64,000 nt of DNA. Origin: Candidatus Curtissbacteria bacterium (GTDB lineage Bacteria > Patescibacteriota > Microgenomatia > Curtissbacterales > GWA2-41-24). The DNA is taken from assembly GCA_016183325.1 (NCBI GenBank), contig JACPEV010000003.1, forward strand, positions 18,000 through 81,999, written 5' to 3'. The position numbers were made by a program, and so were the translations under genes. The first letter of the stretch is position 1, and each line of letters begins with the position of its first letter. This document shows positions 13,376-63,576 of the stretch, piece by piece. The notes under the pieces are model-generated. The model worked only from the letters and a program-made list of their open reading frames with translations, ran no database searches and was not told the DNA's origin.

Positions 13376-13377
13376 TT

Positions 13378-13420
13378 ATTCGTTAATAGTTAATAGTTAA
13401 TCGTTAATGGTTAATAGGTA
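13378..13420. repeat. tandem TTAACGAAT-type heptamer repeats in the nusA leader
   Basis: cgttaatagttaatagttaatcgttaatggttaatagg immediately upstream of the nusA start. Related repeats occur at 19395-19430 (dnaK leader) and 30868-30960 (inside lepA). Confidence 0.6.
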
Positions 13421-13556
13421 AGAAACTATATTTAAAAAAAGGCGCTAGTTCGCGCCTTAGACTCTTAACTTTCTAAAATGCAATCGGATTTTAGCAAAAT
13501 AGTATACTTGAGTCAACTTTATGAATGAACAGAGCTTGCTGAAAACCTAAGCCAAA

Positions 13557-13593
13557 CTGTCATTCTGGGGAGCGAAGCGACTCCAGAATCTGA
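13557..13593. repeat. half-copy of a GC-rich composite palindromic element (cattctgg...ccagaat type)
   Basis: tgtcattctggggagcgaagcgactccagaatctga is a perfect nested palindrome. Full composite copies lie at 52661-52772 and 60522-60613. Confidence 0.7.
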
Positions 13594-13644
13594 ACCTAGA
13601 TTTTAAAATTTTGCGTAAGTCGTATTAACTACAAAGTAATATTT

Positions 13645-14196: not shown

Positions 14197-14389
14197 CCTT
14201 CCAAATTAGGCGCTTTTGATGGTAGAAGACTTACTTTTAAGGTAATATATTCAATCATAATGGCAAGTTCTTTTGCTTTTGAACCAATTTTTGTCAAGCA
14301 TTTTTCATTCTATACCATTTTGTGACGATCGTCAGAAAATAGTATAGATTGGGCTTGCTCGACGAGGTCGGGCCTTGTTTTTCTTAAAC

Positions 14390-14740
14390 TTATACTCGAC
14401 CGGGGTGTTGCTCTTCCCATGATTTCTGACGAGCAGCGCCAATTTCTTCTATATCCGGATGACGTCTTTCGAGCTCCATCAAAACAATACCATGGGCAAT
14501 ATTCCTGAATACTTCATCCCATGTTTCCTCGCCATGGATTTCGAGTCCATGTTCTTCAAAATCCTTGGCTGAAATTGACGTTTCTTTAATTAGTCTTGTT
14601 GCTAAATCAACTAGATTAACATTCGATTCAACAACAGTATCCCAAGCTGCATTCCATGGTACATACGGAACTTGAACCCCGGGTGTCTCTTCAAAGAGTT
14701 TTTGAGTTTTATATCTTTGGGTAATACCTGATTTTAGCCA
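14390..14740 (-). pseudogene. start-less ORF remnant inside the IS, between the left end and the transposase
   Basis: About 115-codon open frame (...PGVQVPYVPWNAAWDTVVESNVNLVDLATRLIKETSISAKDFEEHGLEIHGEETWDEVFRNIAHGIVLMELERRHPDIEEIGAARQKSWEEQHPGRV*) with no plausible start codon. Probably a passenger-gene relic. Confidence 0.3.
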
Positions 14741-15522
14741 CTAGAATCAGTAATCTTTTTCAGTATTCGCTTTACCTGTTTTTCTGTATCCATATTGCGA
14801 TAATTGTATCGCCAAACATACTCTCCCAAAAAGAGGGGAAGATATTTTCTTCTCACTCCTCCTTTGGCGGCCAGTTTTCTTTTAAGATAACCCCAAAAGC
14901 CTTCCAGGCCATTGATATGATTCTTGCCTCGAACGTATTCTCTTTCCCCGTGTTTGACTGTTCTATGAACATAACCTTTAGCAGCCAGTCCTGTATATGC
15001 TCTCCAGGTGTCGGAGCAGATCCTAGAACCAACTTTAACTCTCCTGGTGATAATTGGCAACAAATCAATGGCTTCTGTGTCATCAACCAGCTTGGCAAAC
15101 ACCTTGCCATGACGGGTTAAAATACCGAAGACCGGTTGTTTTGTTGTTCCGAATCCTCGTTTGCTTTCTGCCTCTTTTCTGAGTTGGTTTTTCCGTTTGT
15201 TTTTCTTTTGACCACCAAGATAAGTTTCATCTACTTCGACTGTTCCCGAGAAAACCCTTGGTACATCTCTGGCCATCACCTTTCTGGTTACCATTACGGC
15301 TTTCTCTACTGAATAATGGCTGATTCCTGTTTGCCGGCAGATGGTTTTGATACTGTGTCCCAGTAAAAACCATAACAAAACCTTGTACCAGTTTCTCCTG
15401 GTTAACCCCAGGCCTCCCAGTTTTGGTTTCCACTCATAAAGACAGTTTTTGCAACGCTTTTTACCCCGTCTGACCGAGTAAAGATGTCTGTTTTGGCATC
15501 TAGGGCAAGAATAACCCTTCAT
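14734..15522 (-). CDS. IS1595-family (ISXO2-like) DDE transposase with N-terminal zinc ribbon
   Basis: N-terminal CPRC...CKNC zinc finger, VEVDETYLGG, SDTWRAY, and NGLEGFWGYLKRKL motifs characteristic of the DDE_Tnp_IS1595 domain. 262 aa. Confidence 0.8.
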   Translation of the reverse strand: MKGYSCPRCQNRHLYSVRRGKKRCKNCLYEWKPKLGGLGLTRRNWYKVLLWFLLGHSIKTICRQTGISHYSVEKAVMVTRKVMARDVPRVFSGTVEVDETYLGGQKKNKRKNQLRKEAESKRGFGTTKQPVFGILTRHGKVFAKLVDDTEAIDLLPIITRRVKVGSRICSDTWRAYTGLAAKGYVHRTVKHGEREYVRGKNHINGLEGFWGYLKRKLAAKGGVRRKYLPLFLGEYVWRYNYRNMDTEKQVKRILKKITDSSG

Positions 15523-15801
15523 AACAACCTAATTCTAACATTGTTAGTGGCTGTTTTCAGGGATTACCCTATCTTTCATAAGCTCTTTGGACGAATTCAT
15601 CTAATAACGGTCGATTTTCGCCTTCTTGTGGGGACTGGAGATCCTTCATGGTGGCGAGATTATATTAAAATCTTTGTTGCAAATCAATTTTAGGACCGGG
15701 GAATTTTAAAATGACGAGGTCGGACCTGGTAATTTTGGATAAAAGCCAATCATTCTATACTGTTTTGTGACGATCGTCATAATTTAGTATAGAATCAGAT
15801 T

Positions 15802-17289: not shown

Positions 17290-17398
17290 TTTTAAATTTC
17301 TAATTGATCTAATTAACCTAATTTCTAAATAATTTCTTGAATTAGAAAATTTCTAAATTGGGATTTTGTTAGAAATTAGAAATTAGTAATTAGGAATT

Positions 17399-21588: not shown

Positions 21589-21810
21589 AAAGAAGAGTAC
21601 ATGCGGCTAAAAGAGGAGGCGGCAAGAACTCGGAAGAGTTTTTCTGCTATCGTGAGAGAAAAAGTGCGTTCTAAAAGGAAAAAGCTGTCTAAAGCAGAAG
21701 TTGATAAGATAATGGCAGAAACTGAAAAGTTAGCGAGAGAGATAGGTAAGTATACTAAGGGATTTGATTCGGTTAAAGCCTTAAGAGAAATTCGATATCA
21801 TGATAGATGA
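21556..21810 (+). CDS. vapB: ribbon-helix-helix antitoxin (VapB-like). Track ORF starts at 21511; likely start is an internal Met.
   Basis: VRFHKEEYMRLKEEAARTRKSFSAIVREKV RHH motif. The stop overlaps the start of the downstream PIN gene (ATGA). Confidence 0.5.
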   Translation: MDYITTNVRFHKEEYMRLKEEAARTRKSFSAIVREKVRSKRKKLSKAEVDKIMAETEKLAREIGKYTKGFDSVKALREIRYHDR

Positions 21811-22226
21811 TAATCGTCGATGCTTCTGTCGCCAACAAACTTTTTTTGACTCACGAATCAGGATATAAGCAAGTTAAAACAATCTTCAGGAAGCATGTTA
21901 ATGACACTGAAAAAATCCTCGTTCCAGATCTTCTTTTCTATGAAATAGCTAATACACTAGCCACGAAATTAATGGTTCCCAGTGTAAAGATCGGTTTGGC
22001 TCTGAACCAACTTGATAAATACGACCTTGAGATTTTTCGGTCTAGTTTAAAAGATATTTTCAAAATTGCTGTTTTTGCAAAAGAATTCCACGTTTCAGTT
22101 TACGATGCAACATATGCAGTTCTAGCAAAAGAAAAAGGTTGTGAATTGATTACTGCCGATGAGAAATTTGTGAAACAAGTGAATTTGTCTTTTGTCAAAA
22201 GCTTGCAGGATTATTCAGATGTGTAA
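21807..22226 (+). CDS. vapC: PIN-domain toxin (VapC family)
   Basis: MIIVDASVANKLFL..., internal ...FYEIANTLA..., and C-terminal ITADEKF acidic residues. Confidence 0.7.
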   Translation: MIIVDASVANKLFLTHESGYKQVKTIFRKHVNDTEKILVPDLLFYEIANTLATKLMVPSVKIGLALNQLDKYDLEIFRSSLKDIFKIAVFAKEFHVSVYDATYAVLAKEKGCELITADEKFVKQVNLSFVKSLQDYSDV

Positions 22227-22282
22227 AGCTATATCATCCCCGAGGGCGTGAAGTTATTCGGCGTTTTTTTAAATATTCGAGG

Positions 22283-22318
22283 CTAAATACTCTAATACTC
22301 TAGAGTATTAGAGTAATA
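22283..22318. repeat. cassette-boundary palindrome, copy 1 (TACTCTAATACTCTAGAGTATTAGAGTA)
   Basis: 28 bp perfect palindrome preceded by ggctaaa. Copies 2-5 lie at about 24975-25035, 26300-26355, 27262-27327 and 28429-28494. Confidence 0.8.
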
Positions 22319-22357
22319 AAGATAATCATAAAATTACAAAAGCTAGATTTCTTCATT

Positions 22358-22431
22358 ATCCCGACTCGCCAAGCTATTCCAAACCCGGTTCGGAATACGT
22401 TGGCGAGTAAGGTGAGTTCTGCAATTTCTGA
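22358..22431. repeat. conserved ~75 bp hairpin-forming element, copy 1
   Basis: cgactcgccaagctattccaaacccggttcggaatacgttggcgagtaaggtgagttctgcaatttctga. A second copy (about 85% identical) lies at 28513-28593. Both sit just inside the outermost cassette palindromes. Confidence 0.6.
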
Positions 22432-22435
22432 AAGT

Positions 22436-22522
22436 TCAGGCGGGTACGGGAGCGTTTGATGCTATCAAACCTTCATCCTTAAGCTCTGTCCATAATTCTA
22501 CAGGAATCGGAAATTTCACCAT
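22436..22522 (-). pseudogene. probable C-terminal remnant of the aldo/keto reductase gene
   Basis: 29-codon frame MVKFPIPVELWTELKDEGLIASNAPVPA*, resembling AKR C-termini (VELTEEELAAL type). Lies just beyond the GC-rich insert, on the same strand as the AKR N-terminal fragment at 23871-24078. Confidence 0.3.
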
Positions 22523-22819
22523 TTGGAAATTTTCCTCCGCTTCTTTTGGAGTTCTGGCGCCGGGAATTATTGCCGCAACTGCAGAATGGACTTCTCCGCT
22601 TCAGTGTCGGCAGGGCGAGGGCCAAAAAACGAAAGACCCCAGACAAAGAATACCGGGGTCGGCGCGGGTTGGCACGCTAGTTTCTCCGCGGCTTCGGCGG
22701 CTGCGTTTTCCTCAGCTCGGGGCCGAGGACGATGTCGGAGGGCTGTACGAGCCATTAGGCACCCCTTGAACAAAGGATGCCCCTATTATAGGCTTTTCGA
22801 ATGAACCGTCAAGAAGCTA

Positions 22820-23494
22820 CTAAGGGATTTGTTGTGATTTACGCCTCTGGCGTTGGTTTGTGCCGACGTAGTGCTCCACAGCGTTTCGATCCAAGAACCA
22901 TTGCAGCCCGCGCTTCACAGCCGGCAACTTACGGCGTCGTATCAGATAGGCGACGTTGGTGGGGTGACAGCCGAGGATTTCAGCTGCCTCCGCGATCGTA
23001 ACCGTCGCAGAGGGAGACGCGTCTGTTAGCTCCTTCAGCGAAGCGGCATCTACGACGTTATGGAGCTCCTCGACCGCTCCGTTCGTAAAGATGTTGACTC
23101 TTGTGCGTCGCCGATTGGCATTGCACTCAATGGAAAGAACTGCCTGAGCATGCTTAGGCTGGTAACCTGCCGCTATTCTATCTACCGTGTACTCGCGCGA
23201 TTGAGGGTCAAAGGTGCCGGCAATAAACTGTAGCCTGACAAGCCTATCATCAGGATGCACTTGTACGTGAACGGGCGGATCCCCTTCGTTGCCTAGCCTC
23301 CAAACGTAGCCCTTCCCAAAGGACGGATGCTCAAATGCTTCGGCGTCTGTCCCTAATACTGCGTTCACTGCCTCTACCAGAAACGGCTCTCCAGGCCGCC
23401 ACAAACAATGGAGTCCGTCGGTTTCACGCTCTGCAACGGTCGGGTCGGCCGTAACGGAGCTGCGGGTGCCTGCTATTCTCTCCTGGCTGCTCAC
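22820..23494 (-). CDS. protein with C-terminal excisionase/Xis-type HTH DNA-binding domain (on foreign GC-rich segment)
   Basis: C-terminus VTIAEAAEILGCHPTNVAYLIRRRKLPAVKRG matches HTH_17/excisionase-family helices. High-GC codon usage is unlike the rest of the window. Confidence 0.5.
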   Translation of the reverse strand: MSSQERIAGTRSSVTADPTVAERETDGLHCLWRPGEPFLVEAVNAVLGTDAEAFEHPSFGKGYVWRLGNEGDPPVHVQVHPDDRLVRLQFIAGTFDPQSREYTVDRIAAGYQPKHAQAVLSIECNANRRRTRVNIFTNGAVEELHNVVDAASLKELTDASPSATVTIAEAAEILGCHPTNVAYLIRRRKLPAVKRGLQWFLDRNAVEHYVGTNQRQRRKSQQIP

Positions 23495-23616
23495 AACTCG
23501 TATGATTATACCATGGCGCCGTGTTAGTAACGGTAACGAAAGGTGGGATGAAACGGCGGGGGGAGTGACACGCTCCTAAATTTCGTGTAACATGCACATG
23601 TAACGCGGATCAGGTA

Positions 23617-23856
23617 GTGTTTGGATCGGAGACCCTCATGATCCCTCGGGTGACCATCGACGACATCGCCAGCGACACGAGGCTCTCCCGCAAGACCGTG
23701 TCCCTAGCTTTGCGTCACGACCAATCTGTTGCTGCTGCAACACTCCGTCGGGTCCTAGACGCGGCTGAGCGTCTCGGCTATACACGTAGCCGAGCCGAAA
23801 CGGCGCTCCTTGGGGTGGTGGTCCCTTACTTCAATCATCCGTTCTACTCCGAGTAA
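23617..23856 (+). pseudogene. LacI-family transcriptional regulator, N-terminal HTH fragment only
   Basis: VTIDDIASDTRLSRKTVSLALRHDQSVAAATLRRVLDAAERLGYTRSRAETALLGVVVPYFNHPFYSE is the canonical LacI HTH plus the first strand of the sugar-binding domain. It stops after 79 aa at the edge of the GC-rich segment. Confidence 0.6.
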
Positions 23857-23870
23857 TGTTTCGGCTTGTC

Positions 23871-24078
23871 CGAGCGCGTACTTTGGGGCGGTATCGAAAT
23901 AATTAACTCCCAATTTTAAAGCTGTTTTGACTTTACCAATGGTTGCGGCTTCATCCGGGTTCTCAAAATCCAAAAGGCCCGTTCCTAGGCCAAGGCGGGT
24001 AACAAAAACTCCGGTTTGACCAATTTCTACTTTTTGGGTGGGGACGAAAGAGGATTTAGGTCTTTCCATACCGAGCAA
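23871..24078 (-). pseudogene. aldo/keto reductase N-terminal fragment (gene body replaced by the GC-rich insert)
   Basis: MERPKSSFVPTQKVEIGQTGVFVTRLGLGTGLL...LKLGVNYFDTAPKYALGQAETLLG matches AKR N-terminal consensus (LGLG...G.N.FDTA..YG.G.SE.LLG). The frame then runs into foreign GC-rich DNA. Confidence 0.55.
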
Positions 24079-24175: not shown

Positions 24176-24592
24176 TTACTTATCAATCCCGAATCGTTTG
24201 AATTTATTTGATTTATACTGCTTGTCAAAGCTAAAAACTGTATCCAGACCTTTTCCTTTTAGAATTGCCATATTAACACAGTCTGTGAAACGTGAGTTTT
24301 TGGACGTTTGTTTTTTGAAAAGCTCCAAAGCAGAACGCCTGAGAGCAGCATCAACTTCGATAATTTCCATTTGGCTTGCAAGAATTTCTTCTGCAAATTC
24401 TATCGCTTTATTTAAACCGACTTTTTGACTGATAATTGTCACTGCTTCTCCAAAAGCAGGGTCTGAAGTGAATAGTAATATAGCCTGTTCATCTACAAGA
24501 TTACTTAACTCTATTGCTTTTGAGTGGCTTGAATCTTCTATGGTGTTGAGTGCGACAAAAGCATCAGCGTCGACGAGAAGTTTTTTGATCAT
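24176..24592 (-). CDS. vapC: PIN-domain toxin (VapC family)
   Basis: MIKKLLVDADAFVALNTIEDSSH...FTDCVNMAILK. Confidence 0.7.
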   Translation of the reverse strand: MIKKLLVDADAFVALNTIEDSSHSKAIELSNLVDEQAILLFTSDPAFGEAVTIISQKVGLNKAIEFAEEILASQMEIIEVDAALRRSALELFKKQTSKNSRFTDCVNMAILKGKGLDTVFSFDKQYKSNKFKRFGIDK

Positions 24593-29243: not shown

Positions 29244-31115
29244 TTATATTTTTAATACAGCTAAGAATGCCTCTTGGGGAATATCTACTTGCCCAAAACG
29301 CCTCATTCTCTTTTTGCCTTTTTTCTGCTTCTCAAGTAGTTTCATTTTGCGGGTGACGTCGCCGCCGTAGAGTTTGGCGGTGACGTCTTTGCGGTACGAG
29401 GCGATTGTTTCTCGGGCGATGATTTTGCCCGCCCCCTTCGCCGAGGCTACGGAGGCCGAGCCGATGGCCGCCTGAATCGGTATAGGAATTTGTTGGCGAG
29501 GAATGGCATCTTTTAGTTTTTCGCAAAGTTTTCGGGCAATTTCTTCCGCGCGCACTCGCGGCACTATTTGGGACAGCCCTTCTATCGGTTCGTGGTTAAC
29601 CAGAATATCAAGTTTAACAAGATCGGCCGGGCGATAGTCTGCTATTTCAAAATCTAATGAGGCATAGCCCGAGGTTTGTGACTTGAGCTGATCATAGAAG
29701 CCGATTAAAAGTTCAAGAAGGGGAATTTTCGCTTCTATTTTTAAAAGATTGCCGATTGTTTCAAAATTTTCTTGCTCTCCCCTTTTATCGGTGATAAGCT
29801 TTGACACTACTCCCGAATAAGCCTGAGGAACAAATATCGTAACGCTGGCGATGGGCTCTTTGACGTTTTTTTCAGTCGGGTCAAAATCGCCGGCTTTGTT
29901 GATCAGTTTGTCGTTAACAATGAAATTGACAGAGGGAGAAGTTGTAATGATGTCCAGATCGTATTCACGCTCAAGGCGTTCTTGGGTGATTTGAGCATGC
30001 AAAAGTCCTAAAAAACCAATTCTGAATCCTTGGCCAAGACTGATGGAAGATTCTGTGGTGAAGCTAAGCGATGAATCATTTAGTTTGAGTTTTTCGAGTG
30101 CATCTTTGAGTTTGACAAGGTCTTTGGGGTCTGAGGGGTAAAATGACAGGAAAACAACAGGTTTGGCCGCTTGATAACCAGGAAGTGGTTGAGCCGGCGA
30201 TTTGGGATCGGTGATAGTATCTCCAACTTTTACTTTTGATAAATCTTTAAGGTTAGTTACAACAAAGGCGATCTCCCCGCTGGTTACGTTTTCGACGAAG
30301 TGGGGTTTGGGGGTAAGATAACCTATTTGCAAAATGGTGGCCTTGGCATTCGGGTTGGCCAAAAATAAAATCCGGTCCCCCACATTTATTCTGCCTCCAA
30401 AGACACGGACCGTTGCAACGACACCTTTGTAAGGGTCTAGGGAAGAATCGAAGATTAGTGCTTGGGGTTTGCTCACCCCCGGGGAGCCAGAGCTCACCCC
30501 GGGGGTGTTGCCTGGCGCAGGAATGCGGTCAATTATTGCACGAATAACTGCTTCGACACCCTCGCCGGTTCTGGCGGAGACTTTGATGATTTCTTTTTCG
30601 GAAAATCCAAGAGAGACCAGTTCTTGTGCCGTCTTTTCAATTTGAGCTTGTGGCAAATCAATTTTGTTAATCACCGGAATAATAGTTAAATTGGCTTCAA
30701 GGGCAAGATTAAAATTGGCCAAAGTTTGAGCTTGGATTCCCTGAGTTGCATCGACTACCAGAACTGCGCCTTCTACAGAAGCAAGTGATCGTGAAACTTC
30801 GTAGGAAAAGTCGACGTGGCCGGGAGTATCGATCAAATTCAAAACAAAGTTTTGAATTTGAGGTGAATCGTTAATGGTTAATGGTTCATCGGGAGATTCT
30901 TTTTCAATACGATTAACGATAAACGATGAACGATACACTAATCGTATGGCTTTCAACTTAATGGTGATGCCGTGTTCGCGCTCAAGCTCTAGGCTGTCGA
31001 GAAGTTGTTCTGGGTGATTTTGATCAACTGCACCGCAGATTTCCATGATACGGTCGGCAAGAGTCGATTTACCGTGGTCGACGTGGGCGATGAGGGCAAA
31101 ATTACGAATTTCCAT
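29244..31115 (-). CDS. lepA: elongation factor 4 (LepA), with two short in-frame insertions
   Basis: NFALIAHVDHGKSTLADR, DTPGHVDFSYEV, NKIDLP, and C-terminal LepA domain ending ...[24 protein letters not shown]. Inserts: an about 25 aa segment encoded by TTAACGAT-type repeats (30868-30960) and PAPGNTPGVSSGSPGVS encoded by a GC-rich palindrome (30471-30508). Confidence 0.9.
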   Translation of the reverse strand: MEIRNFALIAHVDHGKSTLADRIMEICGAVDQNHPEQLLDSLELEREHGITIKLKAIRLVYRSSFIVNRIEKESPDEPLTINDSPQIQNFVLNLIDTPGHVDFSYEVSRSLASVEGAVLVVDATQGIQAQTLANFNLALEANLTIIPVINKIDLPQAQIEKTAQELVSLGFSEKEIIKVSARTGEGVEAVIRAIIDRIPAPGNTPGVSSGSPGVSKPQALIFDSSLDPYKGVVATVRVFGGRINVGDRILFLANPNAKATILQIGYLTPKPHFVENVTSGEIAFVVTNLKDLSKVKVGDTITDPKSPAQPLPGYQAAKPVVFLSFYPSDPKDLVKLKDALEKLKLNDSSLSFTTESSISLGQGFRIGFLGLLHAQITQERLEREYDLDIITTSPSVNFIVNDKLINKAGDFDPTEKNVKEPIASVTIFVPQAYSGVVSKLITDKRGEQENFETIGNLLKIEAKIPLLELLIGFYDQLKSQTSGYASLDFEIADYRPADLVKLDILVNHEPIEGLSQIVPRVRAEEIARKLCEKLKDAIPRQQIPIPIQAAIGSASVASAKGAGKIIARETIASYRKDVTAKLYGGDVTRKMKLLEKQKKGKKRMRRFGQVDIPQEAFLAVLKI

Positions 31116-31197
31116 TGTGGATTAGTATAACATCGAGTTAAGGCCAAATTCGCACTAGAAAGAAATTAGGTAACTACTCACCATTACTGATACATCA

Positions 31198-31255
31198 ATT
31201 ATTGTTCGAGGCTAACAGCCGAGAACTAAACTTCTCGCTCGCGCTCGAAGAATAG
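31198..31255. mobile_element. short MITE-like palindromic element (TTATTGTTCGAG...CTCGAAGAATA)
   Basis: ttattgttcgaggctaacagccgagaactaaacttctcgctcgcgctcgaagaata. The ends are reverse complements with one mismatch. Confidence 0.6.
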
Positions 31256-31280
31256 AACCCTATCAATACCTGTGAGTAGT

Positions 31281-31430
31281 TACGAAATTAGTTACTGGAA
31301 ATTTGATAATAGTAATGGAGAGTGGAAAATGGAAAATGACTTAATTAATGCTTTCCAATCTCCCTCAGGGCCGGGCCAGAGGCAAGTTTCGATTACCATT
31401 TTCCAGTTTCTAGTTACCAATCTCTAAATT
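31281..31430. repeat. left arm of long inverted repeat flanking murJ
   Basis: Reverse complement of 33110-33262 at about 85-90% over about 130 bp, including the perfect core ccaatctccctcagggccgggccagaggcaa. Confidence 0.8.
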
Positions 31431-33098
31431 TCACGGGTTTGGCTGTTGGGCGTCGATAGAGGTTGGGGCGGGACTAACCAGGCGGGATGGTAAGGTGATG
31501 ACTTTTTTAACTAAATGATAAAAAATTACGACTTCTTTAACTTTGAGAAGCCAGGATAGAAAAATATAAACTGAAAGACCGATCAGGGTGGCGGTTGCTG
31601 TTAGAAAAATTAATCCGATGGTTCTGGTTGTGTCAAAGACAAGTTGATCTAGAAGTTTCATGGGGATATAGAGTGCAACTGCGGTTAAAAGTGCAATAAG
31701 GCCCATTTTGAATGCTGGAAGAAGTAGCTCTTTTTTGTTAAAAACTACTTTTTTATCCAAAAGATAGAGCAGCAAAATGGCGTTTAAAATGTTGCTTATA
31801 GAGTATGCTAGGGCAAGATAAATGATCGATAGTTTGAGAACTAAAATAAAAATCAGACTTAAGATGATGTTAATACTGACTGTAAAAACATTAACCTTTA
31901 CTGGAGTTAGACTATCTCTTATGGCATAAAATCCTCTCAAAAGAAGAAGACTGACGGCTTGGGCGGCAATACCTATCGAAAAGGCCATCAGCGTTCTGCC
32001 AGTTAAGACTGTGATCTCCCAGGGAAATTCGCGAGCACCGAAGACAAGACGTACAGCAGGAATTCTCAGAATTGCCAGGATGGCAGCAGCGGGCAAAATT
32101 AGAAAGAGAATCTGATGGAAGGAATCGATGAATATCTTTTTAAACTGTTCATATCTTTTGGCATTAAATTCAACAGAAAGTGAAGGCAGAGCTGCCTGGA
32201 CGATACTGCCAGCAAAAAGAGAGATTGGCAAAAGCTGTAAAACTTGGGCGAAGGTAAAGGTAACGATTGAACCTACGGCGACGACTGATGCAAGAGCTAT
32301 GTTTATAATGTCAGAAATTCTAAGAAGAGCAAGAGATATCGACCTTGGCCACATTAAAGCAAATACTTCACGAACATCTTTATTTTTAAAATCCAAGATA
32401 AACGTCACTCGAAACCCTAGGGAAAGAGCGAGTGGCAATTGAATAACCAAATGCAGAAGAGCGCCTAGGACCATACCAACCGCGGGAGCGTAAATGCCCA
32501 AAACAGGAGCTAAAAAAATGATTGAGATAATAATACCGACGTTATAAAAAATCGAGGCAATTGCTGGAATAATGAATCTTTGAAATGATTGGAGAATACC
32601 TGTCAAAAAAATCGAGCCGACAAAGAAAAGTTGGGCAAAAATCATGATACGCATGAGACGGGCGATTAGTGGTTTGGTAAGAGGATCTTGATCCACAAGG
32701 CCAGGAGCAACGATAGGTGCTATAAAATCGGCAGTGGCGACGATTAAAATAGCAAAAATAACAAAAACTAAAAGGGCAGTAGAAATCATGGTGGATGAAA
32801 AATTCCAAGCTTTTTCGAGCTTGTCGTGGGAGAGAAATTTGGAGAAAACTGGAATGAAAGCCAAGGCAATTGTTCCGAAGATCAAAACTTCAAATATGGC
32901 ATCGGGTACGATTGAGGCAGCGATGAAGCTATCCAGAAGATGAATATTATCACCAAAGTAAGAGGCTAAAAGACGGTAGCGGATCAGTCCTAAGATCCTG
33001 GAGATGGCGACCGAGGCAACGATAACAAAGGCGGCAGTAAGGATATTTTCTTGTTTTCTCTTGAAAAAATCAGTGCCATTTTTGAGGATGTACAGCAT
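31431..33098 (-). CDS. murJ: lipid II flippase MurJ (MviN)
   Basis: 555 aa polytopic membrane protein with MurJ N-terminal signature ...ILTAAFVIVASVAISRILGLIRYRLLASYFG... Confidence 0.85.
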   Translation of the reverse strand: MLYILKNGTDFFKRKQENILTAAFVIVASVAISRILGLIRYRLLASYFGDNIHLLDSFIAASIVPDAIFEVLIFGTIALAFIPVFSKFLSHDKLEKAWNFSSTMISTALLVFVIFAILIVATADFIAPIVAPGLVDQDPLTKPLIARLMRIMIFAQLFFVGSIFLTGILQSFQRFIIPAIASIFYNVGIIISIIFLAPVLGIYAPAVGMVLGALLHLVIQLPLALSLGFRVTFILDFKNKDVREVFALMWPRSISLALLRISDIINIALASVVAVGSIVTFTFAQVLQLLPISLFAGSIVQAALPSLSVEFNAKRYEQFKKIFIDSFHQILFLILPAAAILAILRIPAVRLVFGAREFPWEITVLTGRTLMAFSIGIAAQAVSLLLLRGFYAIRDSLTPVKVNVFTVSINIILSLIFILVLKLSIIYLALAYSISNILNAILLLYLLDKKVVFNKKELLLPAFKMGLIALLTAVALYIPMKLLDQLVFDTTRTIGLIFLTATATLIGLSVYIFLSWLLKVKEVVIFYHLVKKVITLPSRLVSPAPTSIDAQQPNP

Positions 33099-33109
33099 TG
33101 TGGTAGAAT

Positions 33110-33262
33110 ACTTGCGAAACTCGAAACCTAGAAATTGGTTACTGGAAACTGGAAATTGGTAATGGAAATTTGCCTCTGGCCCGGCCCTGAGGGAGATTGG
33201 AAATTAGTTAGGAGCTATTTTCCCATTTTCTACTTTCCACTTTCCATTACTACTTTCTCTTT
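33110..33262. repeat. right arm of long inverted repeat flanking murJ
   Basis: ttgcctctggcccggccctgagggagattgg plus flanking ggaaattggtaatggaaa-type sequence. Inverted relative to 31281-31430. Confidence 0.8.
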
Positions 33263-33363
33263 TTCAAGAAAAAATATGCTCTCATATTTTCCAGTAACTA
33301 TTTTCGCCTTGATTCTGATTTCGTGCTTAGGATTTCGGATTTTGTAGAGTAATCTTAATAGAT

Positions 33364-33636
33364 ATGCCGGTAACAAAACAAGCAATCAAAAAGGTTAGGC
33401 AAGACAGGCGAAAGACTGTTTATAACCTTCGTGTGAAGAAGATCTATAAGGCAACGGTCTCGGCTTTTGGCAAGAAGCCGACAATTGCAGGTTTAAGTGC
33501 TGTTTATAGAGCTTTAGATAGGGCTGCTAAGGTTAATGTCATCCATAAAAACAAGGCTTCAAGGCTTAAATCCAGATTATCGAAATTGATAAAGGTGAAA
33601 AAGGTGAGTAAGAAATCGGCGGGCGCGAAAACATAA
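33364..33636 (+). CDS. rpsT: 30S ribosomal protein S20
   Basis: MPVTKQAIKKVRQDRRKTVYNLRVKKIYKATV... is a basic 90 aa protein with the S20 signature. Confidence 0.9.
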   Translation: MPVTKQAIKKVRQDRRKTVYNLRVKKIYKATVSAFGKKPTIAGLSAVYRALDRAAKVNVIHKNKASRLKSRLSKLIKVKKVSKKSAGAKT

Positions 33637-36099: not shown

Positions 36100-36143
36100 A
36101 AATGCCCCAAGTTTCGTCAGTTGCAGGAATTTAAAGAAGTAAA

Positions 36144-36182
36144 CTATACAAATTTCTGACGATCGTCAAAGAACAGTATAAA
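36144..36182. repeat. solo copy of the IS-end palindrome (cTGACGATCGTCA core)
   Basis: ctatacaaatttctgacgatcgtcaaagaacagtataaa matches the ends of the IS at 14309-15794. Confidence 0.6.
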
Positions 36183-36306
36183 TTAAATTTGATACTATGA
36201 TTCGAATCATTAGAACAATTGCTGCTAAACAAATCCAGCAATTTAATAATAAAACAATAGAACAATTATTATAATCTATAAATTTGAAGAGGGAGAAGAT
36301 ATTAGT

Positions 36307-37491: not shown

Positions 37492-37869
37492 ATGCCCGTG
37501 GTTAGATATCTTCTTGACTCCGACGTAATCATAGAATATCTAAAAGATAACAGAGAAACAGTCACGCTTATAAATAAGACTGGTGGTAAAGGGTTATCTT
37601 GCAGCGTTTTAACTATTATTGAGGTTAAACGAGGCGTGAGACCAAAACAAGAAGCTACTTCAGCAGATTTATTCAAAATAATCAAAGCTTACCCTGTGGA
37701 TAAACAGATTGCAGAACTTGCTGTTGCTTTTGCACGGGAATGGCAGGGAAAGGGCAAATTTTTGCAGCTAGTTGATGCTTGCATTGCCGCAACTTGTGTT
37801 ATCTACGATTTGACTCTGGTTACGTATAACAAGCGTGATTATCCGATGAAAGAGCTGAGGATAATTTAG
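37492..37869 (+). CDS. vapC: PIN-domain toxin (VapC family)
   Basis: MPVVRYLLDSDVIIEYL...IAATCVIYDLTLVTYNKRDY. Confidence 0.7.
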   Translation: MPVVRYLLDSDVIIEYLKDNRETVTLINKTGGKGLSCSVLTIIEVKRGVRPKQEATSADLFKIIKAYPVDKQIAELAVAFAREWQGKGKFLQLVDACIAATCVIYDLTLVTYNKRDYPMKELRII

Positions 37870-38138: not shown

Positions 38139-38390
38139 ATGAGCTATATTGTTTCCATCACCTCACAAGGGCAAATTAGCATCCCGGCAAAAATACGTCG
38201 AGAGCTTGGATTGGATAAAAAGAAAAAGGCATTAGTGACGGTCAAGGAAGGAAATATTGTCGTGGAACCTGTAAAGGATTTGCTGGAACTGCGAGGTTCA
38301 TTAAAAACTACTATAAAAGCGACCCGTAAACAAATTCGTGATGCGTTCGAAACGTATCTGGGGAAAGAAGCTGTTAAAGGGATAAGGTGA
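38139..38390 (+). CDS. AbrB/MazE/SpoVT-type antitoxin
   Basis: MSYIVSITSQGQISIPAKIRRELGL swapped-hairpin motif. Overlaps the downstream PIN gene by 4 nt. Confidence 0.6.
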   Translation: MSYIVSITSQGQISIPAKIRRELGLDKKKKALVTVKEGNIVVEPVKDLLELRGSLKTTIKATRKQIRDAFETYLGKEAVKGIR

Positions 38391-38770
38391 CGAGAACTGT
38401 TATTGACGCAAATGCTTTCCTAAGACTTCTATTGGACGATATCCCAAGCCAAGCAGATCAAATTCAAAAGATTCTTCTTGAAGCGAAGAAAAATAAAAAG
38501 GAGTTGTTAGTACCGCAGATTATTATTTTTGAAATAGTGTTTGCTCTCGAGAAATATTATCATTTTCCTAAACAAAAAATTGTAGATAATATTAAGTCAA
38601 TTTTAGCAATGAGGTATTTTAAAATTCAAGACAGAGAAATCTTTAAAAGGGCAATAGATCTTTTTGATAAAAAGAATGTTTCATTAACTGATTGTTTTCT
38701 TGTGTATTTTGTACAGCACAACGATGCAAATCTCTTCAGTTTCGATAAAGATTTAAAGAAATTACAGTAA
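38387..38770 (+). CDS. vapC: PIN-domain toxin (VapC family)
   Basis: MTRTVIDANAFLRLLLDD...LTDCFLVYF...FSFDKD. Confidence 0.7.
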   Translation: MTRTVIDANAFLRLLLDDIPSQADQIQKILLEAKKNKKELLVPQIIIFEIVFALEKYYHFPKQKIVDNIKSILAMRYFKIQDREIFKRAIDLFDKKNVSLTDCFLVYFVQHNDANLFSFDKDLKKLQ

Positions 38771-50607: not shown

Positions 50608-50800
50608 AGCTTCTCGACCTCGTCCTTCGACACATTCGATATCAGCCTTCACCTTCGGTGAATCTGATATATCAGAGGAGCGTCATTGAATCGAAGATTC
50701 AAGACGACCTGCTGATATAAACTCAGTGCAAGCAAGCTCAGGACTTCGCTCGAAAAAGAAAGAATTTTATTGTTCGAGCGTTAGCGAGAACTATTAAATA
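50608..50800. mobile_element. long-form MITE (inverted orientation relative to 58711-58912) plus an adjacent short-form fragment
   Basis: The core tcgacacattcgatatcagccttcaccttcggtgaatctgatatatcagaggagc...gacctgctgatataaactcagtg is the reverse complement of 58755-58865 at about 85%. It is followed by ttattgttcgagcgttagcgagaac. Confidence 0.65.
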
Positions 50801-51153: not shown

Positions 51154-54100
51154 TTACTGTATTTTTGCTAAAGAAAAAGGACAAATGCTGTTATAGGCGC
51201 AGTAAACACAAGCCGGTTCGCGGCCGAAATATTTGGGGTTGGCGACAAAAGAATTATTTTTGGTATCACGGCGGATTTTGTCGGCAGTTTCCAAAATCAA
51301 CTCTTCGGTTTTTTCTAAATCTTTTTGAGTGGGAGTGTGTGCTCCTTCGATGCCGGTTTCCAAGAAGTTGAGGACGACCTTTTCGGGAACGATCCTGTGG
51401 CGCTTAAAGTAGTAAAGCGCGTAGATAGCAAGCTGAATTGATTCTTTAGCCTGAGAATCGGCTTTGTCTTGATCGATGTTTTCGGAAGATTTGTAATCGA
51501 TGATGGTGATTTTCCCGCCAGGTTTTACATCTACCCTATCAAAACGACCGGTAATCGTGACACCTTTTAGCGCGAAATCGAACCTTGCTTCGATAAGGCT
51601 GGGCAGATCTTTTGATTTTGATTCTCGTTGCCAAAAATTTTGGAGGGCAAGTTTGCCTTGAGATTTTCTTTTTTCTTCATGTTCGATGGTTAAAAATCCT
51701 TCACTATCCCAAGCGTTTTCGAAAATTTCCAAAAGCTGGGGAAGGGTTAAAATCCTGCCGCTTTTTTTGGCCCGGAAAAATCCGGCAACGGCGCTGTGGA
51801 GAGCGGCACCGTATACGATAGCGTGATGCCTGAGAGTAGGAATTCTAAGGATATGAATATAGCGGTATTTGTAGGCACACGTTAGATAATCGTCGATTGA
51901 ACCTTGGGTAAGTTTTAAAACATCGACATCGAAAAGTAAAGTTTGGGTTGTGCGGGTAGGTGTTGGTGCAAATTTTTCGATTTTTTCCAGTGGTGAGAGT
52001 CTGGCAATCTCCGCGTCTGATTTGATCTTATCTAATGCTTCCAGCACAAACGGGGATATTTTTTTGACTCTGGCTCCACCAATATCGCGAGACCAGGAAA
52101 AGTAAAGCAAATCTTTAGCACGAGTCATGCCGACATAGAAAAGGCGCCTTTCCTCTTGTTGGTGCCAATCACCGATGGGCAGAGTTTCTTTGATCAAGAC
52201 TTCGGGAACCTCGATGGCATCACCTCGCGCGCGTGTTGGGAAACGATCGGCAACTAAATTGACCAAAAAAACGACCGAAAATTCCAAACCTTTGGCGCCA
52301 TGGACAGTCATTACATTGACGGCATCCACTTCTGGATCAAACTGGACTGTGGCAGGGTCATCACCAGCCCCCCGAATCGCTTCGAGATAATCGACGAATT
52401 GGGTGACTGATTCGACCTTAGCTACGTCAACAAATTCTTTAATTTTATCGAAGAATTTTGCAATATTCTGGATTTTAAGCTGATTTTCAACGCCGCCTTG
52501 CCTTTCTAACTTTTTGAGATAACCGGTTGTTTTCAAAAAGCCGTAGGTAACTTTGCCTACATTTTCGCGCCTGGAGAGTTTAATTGACTCATCAAGATCT
52601 AACAAAAGTTTTTCGATGATGGCTTTGGACTCTTCTGATAGGTCTAAATCTGATATTCCACTGTCATTCTGGCCCTTCGGCAGTGAGCTGCTCAGGACAG
52701 TCGAACTGCTTGTCCAGAATCCGCTTTTTTTGATTCTGGAGTCGTCGCTTCGCTCCTCCCCAGAATGACGGTGTTGGGGTGTAAGTCTATCTAGATTTTT
52801 TAGAACATAATAAAGTGAGCGATTTTTTCTTTTGGCGTATGAAGCGAGTTTGATGGCATCGGCAGGCGGCATTTTGTAAACATCAGATGTACTGAGATTA
52901 AAAAGGTTAAGACTATCTTCAAAATTGGAAATGGCTGTTAAGAAAGAGATTAGGAGATTTACTTCTTCCTGCTGGTATAGGCCTGATGAACCGACAAATT
53001 TATGGGGAATACCCTTCATATTAAGAGCGCGCAAGAAATGGTCGGCTTGGGCGTTGGCGCGAACAAGAATGGCGAAATCGCGATATGAATAACCATCTCT
53101 GCCACCTCCGAGGTGTGAGGAACTTTCACCTCGGAGGTATTTGCTTCTTTTAGCCATTAACTTTTCAATTTCTGCAGCCACTAGATCAGCTTCTTCTGAA
53201 ATTGTATCGGCGAAAATTTCCTGAGGGGATAAGCCATGCCTTATTCCAAGCTCACCCCGGGGGTGTAACCAGACAGCCTTTAATTTTTTATCTATTTTGT
53301 TTTGGACTTCCAGCCGGTCGGGGTCATTGTGGCGGATGAGACGATAAGCACTATTTAAAATGGATTGGGTTGAACGGTAGTTTTGGTTTAGAACCACTTG
53401 GTGGGCTTTTGGATATGTTTTTTTAAACTCTAAAATGTTTGAAATTGCAGCGCCGCGGAATTTGTAGATTGAATTATGAACAACAATATTGTTTGCAATA
53501 AAATTATGCGTTTTTTCAATTTCAAGATCATAGACTGTTAGTGTTTTTTCTTCTTCTGTGATTTCAATTATTTCATCATAATAAACCCGATTATTAACAA
53601 CTATCGGTACACGATGGCCAAGAACTAGATTACTTGCTGGCATTATCAGGGCTGGCTTGCTCTGAAAGCTTGCAAAACCTAAAGCGAATTTTGCCTCTAG
53701 AAAACCACCAGTAAAATCAGTTATTTTTTGTGCGAGTTTGCCCAGATTTAACAAATCGCTGCTTTGAATTCTTAATCTTAGGCCTTTTTTTGCTTTCTGG
53801 AGTTGATAGCCCGCATCTTGCAATAGTTTAATTATCTTAGGATTAGTGGTCTCTAAGTGCAGTGTGTGGGCTATCAATGGGCTTTTAAGAATTTCCTTGG
53901 ATTTGGAGTGATAATTTCTTGAACAGATTTCCAAATTAATTTTTATTCTTCGACTTGATCCTCGAGTGACTGCATTTAAGGTATAGTGAGAAGAATTGAG
54001 GTCTATATGTAAGTCTTGAGCCAGTTTAGCAGCGTTAGCATAACTATCAATATCTTTGTATAACTTCATGAGGGAATCTCCTTTTATTTCAATTCCAATC

Positions 54101-55386
54101 CGTTCTTGAAAAACCGTCGGTGGAATCCCGTATTTGAGAGCCCAAAACATTTCGTAATATCTTGCTTCAGAATCTGTTCTAAATGCTCTTATGCCTATTA
54201 TTTTATCAGCAGATCTTTCCAGCCTAAGTCTCGTAGCAAGATCATTAGTAACTCCAATTCTCCAACCTAAGTTCTGTCTATACATCAAATAAACATAGTG
54301 ATACTGGTTTTGGGAGACTTTGGATGGGACATAACAGAAAACTTTATGATTGTCGGTTAATGTTAGCTTACATCCACTTTTTGTTTTAACCGTTAATAAG
54401 CGTGCAGTTTTTCTGTTCTTGAAGACCTTTGTTATCTTTGAGATGCCTAAGTGACCTTTACCAACCGCAGTTAGAACTTGGTCGCTAATTTTGAGCTTTT
54501 CAATCTTTCTCTTGCCATTGGAAGTAGTAATGAGAGTGCCAGGAGGCAAGCATTGATCATCGTCGCCAACAACACAGATGTTTTTGTGACTGGCGGCGAG
54601 CAATTTGACCAGTTCGTTTTGGGCATAATTGGTATCTTGGTATTCATCGACTAAGATGTATTTGAATTGATCTTGATATTTTTTGAGAATTTTGGGGCGC
54701 TTTTGGAAAAGTTCGATGGTTTTGACAACTTGATCACCAAAATCCAAAAAACCGGCTTCGTCTTTAAATTTCTCGTATTGCTGATAAGAACTTGCTAATT
54801 CTTGATATTTCTTGGCTTCGATCCTTCGACTTCGCTCAGGACCTTCGGTTTTCTCTTCTTTTCTGGCGTCAGTTGCCAGTCGTTTAGAGTATAGCGAGAA
54901 TTCCTCCGGATTGATGTTTTCGTCCTTAAGTCTGGAGAAAAAAGAAAGAATTGCAGAGATGAATTTTGTAGGATTAGAAAGTGGAAGATAGTACTCTAGA
55001 TTAAACCTGAAAAGGTTTTGTTGGAAAAAGAGAACTTGTTGAGGGCGAGAAAGAACTTTGAAATCTGGAGAAAGACCAATTTCCAGAACATTGTCGCGCA
55101 AAATTCTGTCACCAAAAGCATGAAAGGTAGAAATCCAGGTGTCGATAAAACCGTAAGGGACAAGTATATCCACGCGTTCTTCCATTTCGGCGGCAGCTTT
55201 GTCGGTAAAGGTCAGCGCCAAAATTTCCGAAGGTTTGGCGAGGCGTTTTTCAATAATGTAGGCAATACGTCTTGCGATAACGGCGGTTTTGCCAGTGCCA
55301 GCACCGGCGATTATTAAAAGCGGCCCTTCGGTTGTGGTAACCGCCTGTTTTTGCTCAAGGTTGAGATCTTTGAGAATATCTGACAT
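51154..55386 (-). CDS. UvrD-like helicase fused to a C-terminal PD-(D/E)XK (RecB/Cas4-like, 4-Cys) nuclease domain. Contains an intein and two in-frame palindromic inserts.
   Basis: Walker A AGAGTGKT, VDEYQDT, VVGDDDQ|C...HN|SIYKFRGA (motif III split by the intein), and C-terminal CxxCxxxxxC cluster (EPACVYCAYNSICPF). 1410 aa precursor. Confidence 0.8.
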   Translation of the reverse strand: MSDILKDLNLEQKQAVTTTEGPLLIIAGAGTGKTAVIARRIAYIIEKRLAKPSEILALTFTDKAAAEMEERVDILVPYGFIDTWISTFHAFGDRILRDNVLEIGLSPDFKVLSRPQQVLFFQQNLFRFNLEYYLPLSNPTKFISAILSFFSRLKDENINPEEFSLYSKRLATDARKEEKTEGPERSRRIEAKKYQELASSYQQYEKFKDEAGFLDFGDQVVKTIELFQKRPKILKKYQDQFKYILVDEYQDTNYAQNELVKLLAASHKNICVVGDDDQCLPPGTLITTSNGKRKIEKLKISDQVLTAVGKGHLGISKITKVFKNRKTARLLTVKTKSGCKLTLTDNHKVFCYVPSKVSQNQYHYVYLMYRQNLGWRIGVTNDLATRLRLERSADKIIGIRAFRTDSEARYYEMFWALKYGIPPTVFQERIGIEIKGDSLMKLYKDIDSYANAAKLAQDLHIDLNSSHYTLNAVTRGSSRRIKINLEICSRNYHSKSKEILKSPLIAHTLHLETTNPKIIKLLQDAGYQLQKAKKGLRLRIQSSDLLNLGKLAQKITDFTGGFLEAKFALGFASFQSKPALIMPASNLVLGHRVPIVVNNRVYYDEIIEITEEEKTLTVYDLEIEKTHNFIANNIVVHNSIYKFRGAAISNILEFKKTYPKAHQVVLNQNYRSTQSILNSAYRLIRHNDPDRLEVQNKIDKKLKAVWLHPRGELGIRHGLSPQEIFADTISEEADLVAAEIEKLMAKRSKYLRGESSSHLGGGRDGYSYRDFAILVRANAQADHFLRALNMKGIPHKFVGSSGLYQQEEVNLLISFLTAISNFEDSLNLFNLSTSDVYKMPPADAIKLASYAKRKNRSLYYVLKNLDRLTPQHRHSGEERSDDSRIKKSGFWTSSSTVLSSSLPKGQNDSGISDLDLSEESKAIIEKLLLDLDESIKLSRRENVGKVTYGFLKTTGYLKKLERQGGVENQLKIQNIAKFFDKIKEFVDVAKVESVTQFVDYLEAIRGAGDDPATVQFDPEVDAVNVMTVHGAKGLEFSVVFLVNLVADRFPTRARGDAIEVPEVLIKETLPIGDWHQQEERRLFYVGMTRAKDLLYFSWSRDIGGARVKKISPFVLEALDKIKSDAEIARLSPLEKIEKFAPTPTRTTQTLLFDVDVLKLTQGSIDDYLTCAYKYRYIHILRIPTLRHHAIVYGAALHSAVAGFFRAKKSGRILTLPQLLEIFENAWDSEGFLTIEHEEKRKSQGKLALQNFWQRESKSKDLPSLIEARFDFALKGVTITGRFDRVDVKPGGKITIIDYKSSENIDQDKADSQAKESIQLAIYALYYFKRHRIVPEKVVLNFLETGIEGAHTPTQKDLEKTEELILETADKIRRDTKNNSFVANPKYFGREPACVYCAYNSICPFSLAKIQ
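52661..52772. repeat. GC-rich composite palindromic element inserted in-frame in the helicase gene
   Basis: tgtcattctggcc...gtccagaatcc...gattctggagtcgtcgcttcgctcctccccagaatgacgg, translated in the helicase as ...TPQHRHSGEERSDDSRIKKSGFWTSSSTVLSSSLPKGQNDSGISDL... Paralog of the intergenic copy at 60522-60613. Confidence 0.75.
53103..53140. repeat. GC-rich palindromic element (cacctccgaggtg family) in-frame in the helicase gene
   Basis: cacctccgaggtgtgaggaactttcacctcggagg encodes ...GESSSHLGGG..., the same peptide motif inserted in pcrA. Confidence 0.7.
53473..54552 (-). mobile_element. intein (~360 aa) inserted in helicase motif III, with a putative GIY-YIG-like homing-endonuclease region
   Basis: Block A CLPPGTLITTSNGK, block B LTLTDNHKVF, block F/G VYDLEIEKTHNFIANNIVVHN followed by the +1 Ser of the extein. 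The internal YHYVYLMYRQNLGWRIGVTNDLATRLRLE resembles a GIY-YIG core. Confidence 0.75.
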
Positions 55387-55419: not shown

Positions 55420-55836
55420 TTAGGATAATACTTCTATTTTTAGACCGTTGATTTTTCGCGGCAACCTTCGGTCTGCAGTTACGAAAATCTCTGCGCCTGA
55501 CTCGAGAGCAGTGGCCAGGTGAATTGCGTCTGGAGTTCTTATCTGCTTATATTGCGCTCGAATTTGAGCAGATTTGATTGCTATATTTCTAGTAAAATCG
55601 ACTATGGAAATATTGCCAGAATTGGATATGAAATTTAAATATGCGTGCACTTTTCTAATTAATCCTTCTTTGTAGACACCAACAAGTATCTCTTGGAGTG
55701 TTAAAACGGATGTGAAGACTTGAAGATTTGTTTCTTTTATCTCGAAAAGTTTTTTTCTAGATGCGTTGCCTGACCTGCCTTTATTTTCTAATGCATAGAT
55801 AAAGATATTGGAATCTAAGGCGATTTTTAATCCCAC
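55420..55836 (-). CDS. vapC: PIN-domain toxin (VapC family)
   Basis: MGLKIALDSNIFIYALE...FVTADRRL. Confidence 0.7.
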   Translation of the reverse strand: MGLKIALDSNIFIYALENKGRSGNASRKKLFEIKETNLQVFTSVLTLQEILVGVYKEGLIRKVHAYLNFISNSGNISIVDFTRNIAIKSAQIRAQYKQIRTPDAIHLATALESGAEIFVTADRRLPRKINGLKIEVLS

Positions 55837-58710: not shown

Positions 58711-58912
58711 TTTATTGTTCGAGCGTAGTCGACCCTTCGATTTTACTCAGGGTCGACACTGAGTTTATATCAGCAGGTCAATTTGAAACTTCGTTTCAAT
58801 ATTGCTCCTCTGATATATCAGATTCGCCGAAGGCGAAGGTTGATATCGAATGTGTCGAGAACTTACCTTAAGGAAACTTCTCGACTCGCTCCGCTCGCTC
58901 GAAGAGTATTAA
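58711..58912. mobile_element. long-form MITE (TTATTGTTCGAGCG...GCTCGAAGAGTATTA) with ~105 bp conserved core
   Basis: Terminal inverted repeats tttattgttcgagcg / gctcgctcgaagagtatta. The core is shared, inverted, with 50608-50730. Confidence 0.7.
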
Positions 58913-60521: not shown

Positions 60522-60613
60522 TGTCATTCTGGCCCTAAGGTCCGGGTCTAGGACTTGTCCAGAATCCTTACTAGAATCAGATTCTGGAGTCGCTTCGCTC
60601 CCCAGAATGACAG
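60522..60613. repeat. GC-rich composite palindromic element, intergenic copy
   Basis: tgtcattctggccctaaggtccgggtctaggacttgtccagaatcc...gattctggagtcgcttcgctccccagaatgacag. Confidence 0.75.
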
Positions 60614-60636
60614 TTTGACTTAGGTTTTCAACAAAC

Positions 60637-63506: not shown

Positions 63507-63576
63507 AGCATGAATTATGAAGTTAGAATTATGGGAGATTGTTCAATCCATAATTCATGATTCTTAATTCATAATT

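Follow-up and report, generated by a model that had tools for sequence, protein, structure and literature searches.

We analyzed the murJ locus in a 64,000-nucleotide (nt) stretch of a Candidatus Curtissbacteria genome (assembly GCA_016183325.1, contig JACPEV010000003.1, positions 18,000 to 81,999; hereafter the window, numbered from its first letter), where the gene for the lipid II flippase MurJ is bracketed by two inverted copies of a non-coding repeat, here called element E. murJ (31431-33098, minus strand) encodes a full-length protein of 555 amino acids (Pfam MurJ, 3.5e-67) and is syntenic with its counterparts in relatives. Downstream of it lies lepA (29244-31115, minus strand), separated from murJ by a spacer of 315 bp, and on its other side is the divergent gene rpsT (33364-33636, plus strand), which encodes ribosomal protein S20. 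The left copy of the element, E1 (31284-31430, plus strand, 147 bp), begins directly after the murJ stop codon and shares the murJ-lepA spacer with P2 (31157-31296), a 140-nt imperfect palindrome that is unrelated to E and abuts its outer end; no other copy of P2 was found in the window or in the fetched loci of relatives. The right copy, E2 (approximately 33126-33306, minus strand, about 181 bp), lies between the divergent starts of murJ and rpsT. The original prediction stated that murJ alone stands between the repeats, and indeed the interval holds only this open reading frame (ORF) and approximately 27 nt of upstream region.

All three genes have a -10-like box near their start codon. Upstream of murJ, an ancestral block inside the bracket (33099-33125, minus strand) carries the hexamer TATTCT (33105-33110) 6 nt before the ATG. 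A 15-nt block ending in the murJ start, TATTCTACCACAATG, which sets this spacing, is identical in two of the relatives described below (L007 and L011), and the upstream block as a whole matches L007 at 24 of 28 nt. The promoter-like block of lepA (31116-31132, minus strand) comprises TGT-TATACT (31124-31132, with the hexamer at 31124-31129), followed by 8 nt and the ATG at 31115, and resembles the TGATATACT block that precedes lepA in a more distant relative (L005). In the case of rpsT, the box is TAATCT (33350-33355), and both this box and that of lepA lie outside the bracket. Strong -10-like hexamers were found 13 times at 5-10 nt before start codons, versus 2.0 times per equal-sized bin further upstream, and a Shine-Dalgarno-like core precedes only 7 of 54 genes. 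This pattern suggests that mRNAs in this Curtissbacteria genome are mostly leaderless or have very short leaders, and the TATTCT hexamer is accordingly a candidate promoter of murJ, predicted to lie inside the bracket. A literature search on miniature inverted-repeat transposable elements (MITEs) of the candidate phyla radiation (CPR) or on leaderless expression in Patescibacteria gave no relevant match.

A repeat search of the window delimited the inverted arms of E1 and E2 to 31316-31432 and 33123-33239 (117 nt, 82% complementary, 1690 nt apart), which makes them the longest inverted repeat pair in all 64 kb. The 31-bp core that had been noted as perfect is present exactly twice, once on each strand (31355-31385, plus; 33170-33200, minus), with no occurrence expected from 100 shuffles, and reading the sequence outward extends the perfect identity to 34 nt (31352-31385, plus; 33170-33203, minus). 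In E1 this core reads CCAATCTCCC... on the plus strand and includes the GC-rich tip hairpin CCTC-A-GGGCC-G-GGCC-A-GAGG. The inverted repeats around murJ are thus real, but the right arm had been mis-delimited at 33110-33262: the 16 nt at 33110-33125 are ancestral flank homologous to that of relatives, and the element extends to approximately 33306. Nor are the arms simple reverse complements as first described; they are inverted, but only 82-92% identical, with indels. The inner, murJ-proximal arms share 92% identity over 75 nt, while the outer arms are far less alike and differ by a 7-nt indel and an indel of approximately 27 nt, the latter reflecting an additional 27-35 nt (approximately) near 33263-33290 that only E2 has.

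Repeat pairs and predicted folds indicate that each copy is also complementary to itself, forming an imperfect hairpin-type palindrome. Its arms are built from GAAA-type units with a period of approximately 7 nt (TGGAAAA/TGGAAAG in one arm, CAGTTTC/CAATTTC in the other) and enclose the GC-rich tip hairpin (CCTC..GGC-CGG-GCC..GAGG). Because each copy is self-palindromic, E1 and E2 score as direct repeats too (83% and 78%), and their true inverted orientation is revealed only by the asymmetric core. Both copies end in GAAAWTAGTTACTGGAAA-like terminal inverted repeats, located at the outer end of E1 (31284-31301, GAAATTAGTTACTGGAAA), the inner end of E2 (33131-33148, GAAATTGGTTACTGGAAA) and the outer end of E2 (33288-33305, TTTCCAGTAACTATTTTC). 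The last of these matches the outer end of E1 over 19 nt at 95%, and the three repeats, the third taken as its reverse complement, match one another at 89-95%. Reading frames are not conserved between E1 and E2, given the 7-nt and approximately 27-nt indels, and E contains no ORF for a transposase. The longest ORF across E2, of 70 amino acids, had no relative and no shared words among 5.8 billion proteins.

To place these copies in an evolutionary context, we compared the window with murJ loci of relatives from at least nine lineages (L002-L005 and L007-L018), the nearest genomes being metagenome-assembled genomes of Curtissbacteria. MurJ identity to these loci is 85% for L007-L010 and L012, 84% for L011, 78% for L013-L015, 77% for L016-L018, and 71-77% for L002-L005. 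All fetched relatives keep the order and orientation of rpsT, murJ and lepA seen in the window, and an nhmmer search found element E in neither spacer of any of them. The rpsT-murJ spacer measures 265 bp in the window versus 93-181 bp in the relatives. On the other side of the gene, murJ and lepA overlap by 23 nt in L002 and by TAATG in L016, so that lepA starts inside murJ (L002, 6646-6668) or at its stop codon (L016, 4538-4545), whereas the window has the 315-bp spacer. The tail of murJ in the window keeps the dead ancestral lepA start, changed from ATG to ACG at 31451-31453; the present lepA start lies 315 bp downstream and adds two new N-terminal residues (ME-IRNF). The overlap of murJ and lepA has been split by spacer insertion. 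The murJ-lepA spacers of L007 (7680-7783), L015 (4445-4555), L018 (4713-4768) and L011 each hold a different imperfect palindrome, which in L011 is a GTCATTCCCGCG...CGCGGGAATC hairpin.

This comparison bears directly on one way of reading the bracket, namely that murJ is horizontally acquired cargo of a composite mobile unit. The inverted repeats do bracket exactly one gene, as such a unit would. Against this, murJ is orthologous and the rpsT-murJ-lepA synteny holds in all relatives, the murJ tail retains the ancestral lepA start, and the repeats encode no transposase; moreover, identity to L007 is at similar levels for MurJ (85%), LepA (79%) and S20 (76%). We regard an acquired cassette as extremely improbable, and a composite transposon was rejected on synteny.

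A second palindrome family, F, informs the history of E2. This family, which includes the exact 21-mer TTTCGGATTTCGATATTCGAG, occupies the rpsT-murJ spacer in L007-L010 and L012 (L007, 5854-5978) and the murJ-lepA spacer in L005 (5780-5900), a much more distant lineage. The presence of F at different loci in different species is direct evidence that palindromes of this family are dispersed, movable repeats. In the window, relics of F flank E2 on both sides: the rpsT-side arm (33310-33343, minus strand) is identical to the L007 spacer at 30 of 34 nt, and the murJ-side arm (33099-33125, minus strand) is the ancestral upstream block described above, matching at 24 of 28. The body of E2 between these arms has no counterpart in the L007 spacer, which therefore resembles an empty site. 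Since the flanks of E2 are F arms and its body is unmatched, E2 is an insertion or replacement in the center of an older F palindrome. A fold running from one end to the other is predicted for all 213 nt of 33114-33326, and no local palindromes in the window are longer than those of the two murJ-flanking spacers.

Taken together, E1 and E2 probably represent a MITE-like palindromic repeat of approximately 150-180 bp that is lineage-specific and non-coding, in two old copies that have diverged, and the bracket that they form around murJ is probably incidental. The copies would have lodged in the only non-coding DNA that adjoins murJ, E1 in the murJ-lepA spacer and E2 in the rpsT-murJ spacer, where E2 would have entered the middle of the older F palindrome, and the opposite orientation of the two copies, arising by chance, would have left murJ bracketed. 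The bracket may thus merely reflect the sites at which a very compact CPR genome tolerates such elements or is targeted by them, namely pre-existing palindromic spacers. E has several features by which MITEs are recognized, as it is short (below approximately 600 bp) and non-coding, has terminal inverted repeats, and is present or absent at orthologous sites. Additional support comes from context, as the window harbors other two-copy inverted repeat families (with copies 8 kb and 47 kb apart) and an element of the IS1595 family of insertion sequences (IS). The suggestion that the repeats are two MITE copies in opposite orientation is consequently borne out with regard to their non-coding nature, self-palindromic structure, terminal inverted repeats, absence from relatives and occurrence among mobile palindrome families. 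With regard to dispersal it is unproven, since neither the window nor the scanned collections yielded a third copy. We infer both the manner of copying of E, as a MITE-like repeat, and the lack of inversion of murJ.

Several observations weigh against this interpretation. Searches with nhmmer and blastn found no third copy of E in the window, and the two known copies are neighbors; if two insertions fell at random among the approximately 55-60 spacers, the chance that they would flank one gene is a few percent. An exact 24-nt pattern from the core had no match in 185,579 representative genomes, the same 24-mer and a degenerate 23-mer from the inner arm had none in the JGI metagenomes or in IMG/VR, and a BLAST search with E2 found no match among plasmids and phages. 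Nor did the protein database, queried with the 70-amino acid ORF across E2 as a stand-in for further copies of E, yield any. The window contains no IS with ends that match E and could thus represent a related autonomous partner; its sole transposase gene, of the IS1595 family (14734-15522), belongs to an element whose ends, ATTCTATAC...GACGATC, are unrelated to E. No convincing direct repeat that could represent a target-site duplication flanks E1 or E2. The motif AAYCCnnnA, found at the murJ end and the lepA start around the whole 315-bp spacer, is a weak, possible duplication, with 6 of 9 positions matching and a probability of approximately 2-3% by chance. Finally, the assignment of the murJ promoter draws solely on sequence pattern and conservation.

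Because only two adjacent copies were found and the scans returned nothing, a local inverted duplication or gene conversion is a serious rival. Here, a palindromic spacer would have been copied onto its neighbor at a distance of 1.7 kb, through either template switching at hairpins or ectopic gene conversion involving two palindromes with similar heptad arms, with no wider family involved. This would account for the adjacency of the only detectable copies, for the lack of matches to E in any scanned collection and for the lack of a visible target-site duplication, and the 7-nt GAAA-periodic palindromes already held by both spacers of the relatives offer a possible source of homology. However, E2 has discrete ends nested within the F relic arms, an arrangement more like an insertion than a conversion tract. 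In addition, related palindrome families occur at different loci in different species, and the copies themselves are old and diverged (82-92% identity, with indels). We consider this local origin possible but rather unlikely.

We also evaluated whether the bracket could be a programmed invertible cassette, as raised in the original prediction, which envisaged a gene-sized segment that switches murJ on or off. In its more general form, a recombinase encoded elsewhere would act on the 34-nt core and change either the expression of murJ or its coupling to lepA. The perfect inverted core does flank a single gene and its length is within the range of known recombinase sites. Moreover, an independent Logan contig from SRR12113383, assembled with k=31 (L001, 1.5 kb), matches the window without a difference and breaks off precisely at the core in E2; it was retrieved with S20, while exact look-ups with MurJ and LepA retrieved nothing. 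A break at this point is the behavior of a k=31 graph at a repeated k-mer, implying at least two copies of the core in that sample; it does not distinguish orientation, and so fits either one while giving no evidence for a second.

Other evidence argues against a switch. Of the 60 ORFs of at least 120 amino acids in the window, 57 were scanned against Pfam (the three skipped ORFs overlap larger ones), and none of the 57 showed a serine or tyrosine recombinase domain or a Y1_Tnp/RAYT domain. With regard to the position of the promoter, which bears on any on/off mechanism, the conserved -10-like box and the murJ start both lie inside the bracket. In a crossover within the 34-nt core, this box and no fewer than 60 nt upstream would move together with the gene, so that the predicted murJ promoter would stay coupled to murJ. 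lepA and rpsT have promoter-like boxes of their own, the arms beyond the core are diverged and differ by indels instead of having stayed identical, and the assembled orientation of murJ is the ancestral one, as in all relatives. Since E is absent from these relatives, there is also no conserved regulatory design. In summary, of the features expected from an inverton, the locus has the inverted repeats, while it has neither a recombinase among the scanned ORFs nor, as far as the predicted promoter indicates, a separation of promoter from gene or a swap of coding ends.

We therefore consider a programmed cassette very improbable, and the MITE-like reading is better supported. If E1 and E2 are such MITE-like copies, the bracket would be no regulatory device, as murJ would keep its leaderless-type promoter inside it and lepA and rpsT theirs outside. 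In principle, murJ could still be flipped by rare recombination of the RecA type at the 34-nt core, with its promoter carried along.

A further explanation is that the copies, rather than being selfish DNA, are selected cis-acting structures (hairpins or arrays of protein-binding sites) that insulate murJ transcription, E1 serving as a 3' terminator or mRNA-stabilizing hairpin and E2 as a 5' architectural, -35 or UP element. Their placement is compatible with such roles, as E1 follows the murJ stop codon immediately, at a point where termination would be needed once lepA has its own promoter, and the -35 region of the predicted murJ promoter falls in the inner arm of E2. The better conservation of the inner arms (92%) and the resemblance of the 7-nt periodic GAAA motifs to repeated binding sites point the same way. 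Structural predictions are less favorable. The hairpins exceed shuffled controls in stability by a modest margin only (z from -1.3 to -3.2), a terminator scan found nothing at E1, and no T-run follows the E hairpins. The Rfam covariance models gave nothing at gathering score in the window and only chance-level matches in 31000-33500. No compensatory changes distinguish E1 from E2, although two sequences are uninformative for covariation. In addition, the same element sits in two unlike spacers, one at a 3' end and the other in a divergent promoter region, and the relatives lack it. Selection for a cis-acting function thus appears improbable. Pairing between the 5' and 3' untranslated regions of murJ was considered separately and rejected, as the inferred transcript would start downstream of E2.

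Other repeats and mobile elements are found elsewhere in the window. The IS1595-family DDE transposase gene (14734-15522, minus strand) is part of a region (14307-15795) with 45-nt palindromic ends containing GACGATCGTC, and a solo third copy of this element end is located at 36141-36187. One of the two-copy inverted families lies at 50627-50728 and 58757-58858 (102 nt, 89% identity, 8 kb apart), and the other at 13533-13599 and 60571-60637 (67 nt, 93%, 47 kb apart); both are intergenic, and the latter includes a GTCATTCTGGGGAGCGAAGCGACTCCAGAATC hairpin that resembles in type the one following murJ in L011. Tandem 7-nt repeats, such as five copies of TTAATNG upstream of nusA, and heptad-based palindromes occur in other spacers (13376-13420, 17294-17351 and 63505-63577), and a 7-nt periodicity seems to be general to the non-coding DNA of this genome.

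Among the protein-coding genes, 51154-55386 (minus strand) encodes a 1410-amino acid AddA-like UvrD helicase/PD-(D/E)XK nuclease whose sequence is split by an intein (Intein_splicing and Hint domains, residues approximately 277-638). A homologue of RmuC is encoded at 57686-58681 (minus strand), in a genome rich in inverted repeats; in E. coli, RmuC limits inversions between short inverted repeats. At least six genes encode toxin-like PIN-domain proteins (1105-1512, 21807-22226, 24176-24592, 37492-37869, 38387-38770 and 55420-55836), several of which adjoin repeat families D3-D5 (36-40 kb). The region 22000-24000 is a patch of 50.5% GC in a genome of approximately 40% GC. It contains an ORF with a C-terminal, excisionase-like HTH_17 domain (22820-23494, minus strand) and has repeated PIN/GNAT modules on its flanks, together with repeat families D6-D8, D9 and D11 (21-29 kb).

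A phase-variable gene for an essential flippase would have been remarkable, and the evidence points away from it. What the locus indicates instead is that tiny, compact CPR genomes, too, carry several families of small palindromic repeats. Such repeats turn over rapidly at the same few spacers, nest within one another and break short-read assemblies at shared k-mers, and screens based on repeats can mistake them for invertons. A second lesson of the locus is how an insertion into the murJ/lepA overlap was accompanied by a relocated start codon and promoter.

A wider proposal, which we hold with considerable doubt, is that Curtissbacteria spacers house undescribed palindromes with fast turnover, made of tandem 7-nt GAAA-type arms around a GC-rich tip, of which E is one family. 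These would insert preferentially into one another's centers and split overlapping genes such as murJ and lepA, forcing or supplying new leaderless promoters and start codons, and the 34-nt core might let the essential murJ flip occasionally.

The closest parallels in architecture are the Correia (CREE/NEMIS) elements of Neisseria and the ERIC/IRU, RUP and BOX-type repeats. These are non-coding imperfect palindromes of approximately 100-180 bp with terminal inverted repeats, which sit between genes near gene starts or ends in either orientation, can provide promoter elements or hairpins, and show presence/absence polymorphism. They form families of tens to hundreds of copies per genome, and Correia elements have a TA target duplication. 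E resembles the Correia, ERIC and RUP repeats in size, palindromy, terminal inverted repeats, intergenic location and presence or absence at a given site. This likeness is one of architecture only, as E has no sequence relationship to them, was seen in two copies without a duplication, resides in a CPR host, and has arms made of 7-nt periodic GAAA-type units around a GC-rich tip, unlike any of these families.

Invertons such as fimS, the hin segment and the capsule promoters of Bacteroides (the class detected by PhaseFinder) share with the murJ bracket a segment between inverted repeats, and the 34-nt core would be usable by a recombinase or by RecA. In the known cases, a promoter or coding end is positioned such that orientation changes expression, and a dedicated recombinase is usually encoded nearby, whereas at murJ the predicted promoter lies inside the segment and no recombinase was found among the scanned ORFs of the window. 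Inverton sites are also short and exact, while the repeats of E are long, diverged and self-palindromic. REP/BIME sequences with RAYT differ in another way, being clustered palindromes of 20-40 nt accompanied by a gene for RAYT, a Y1 transposase; E is approximately 150 nt long, and no RAYT was found among the scanned ORFs.

Finally, nested insertions are known from IS1397 and ISKpn1, which insert into the loops of REP/BIME palindromes, and from nested MITEs. The position of E2 in the center of an F palindrome, with the F arms still flanking it, is similar to these insertions into palindromes. Unlike IS1397 and ISKpn1, E has no transposase gene and no known autonomous partner. Judging from this one case, E may likewise target palindromes.

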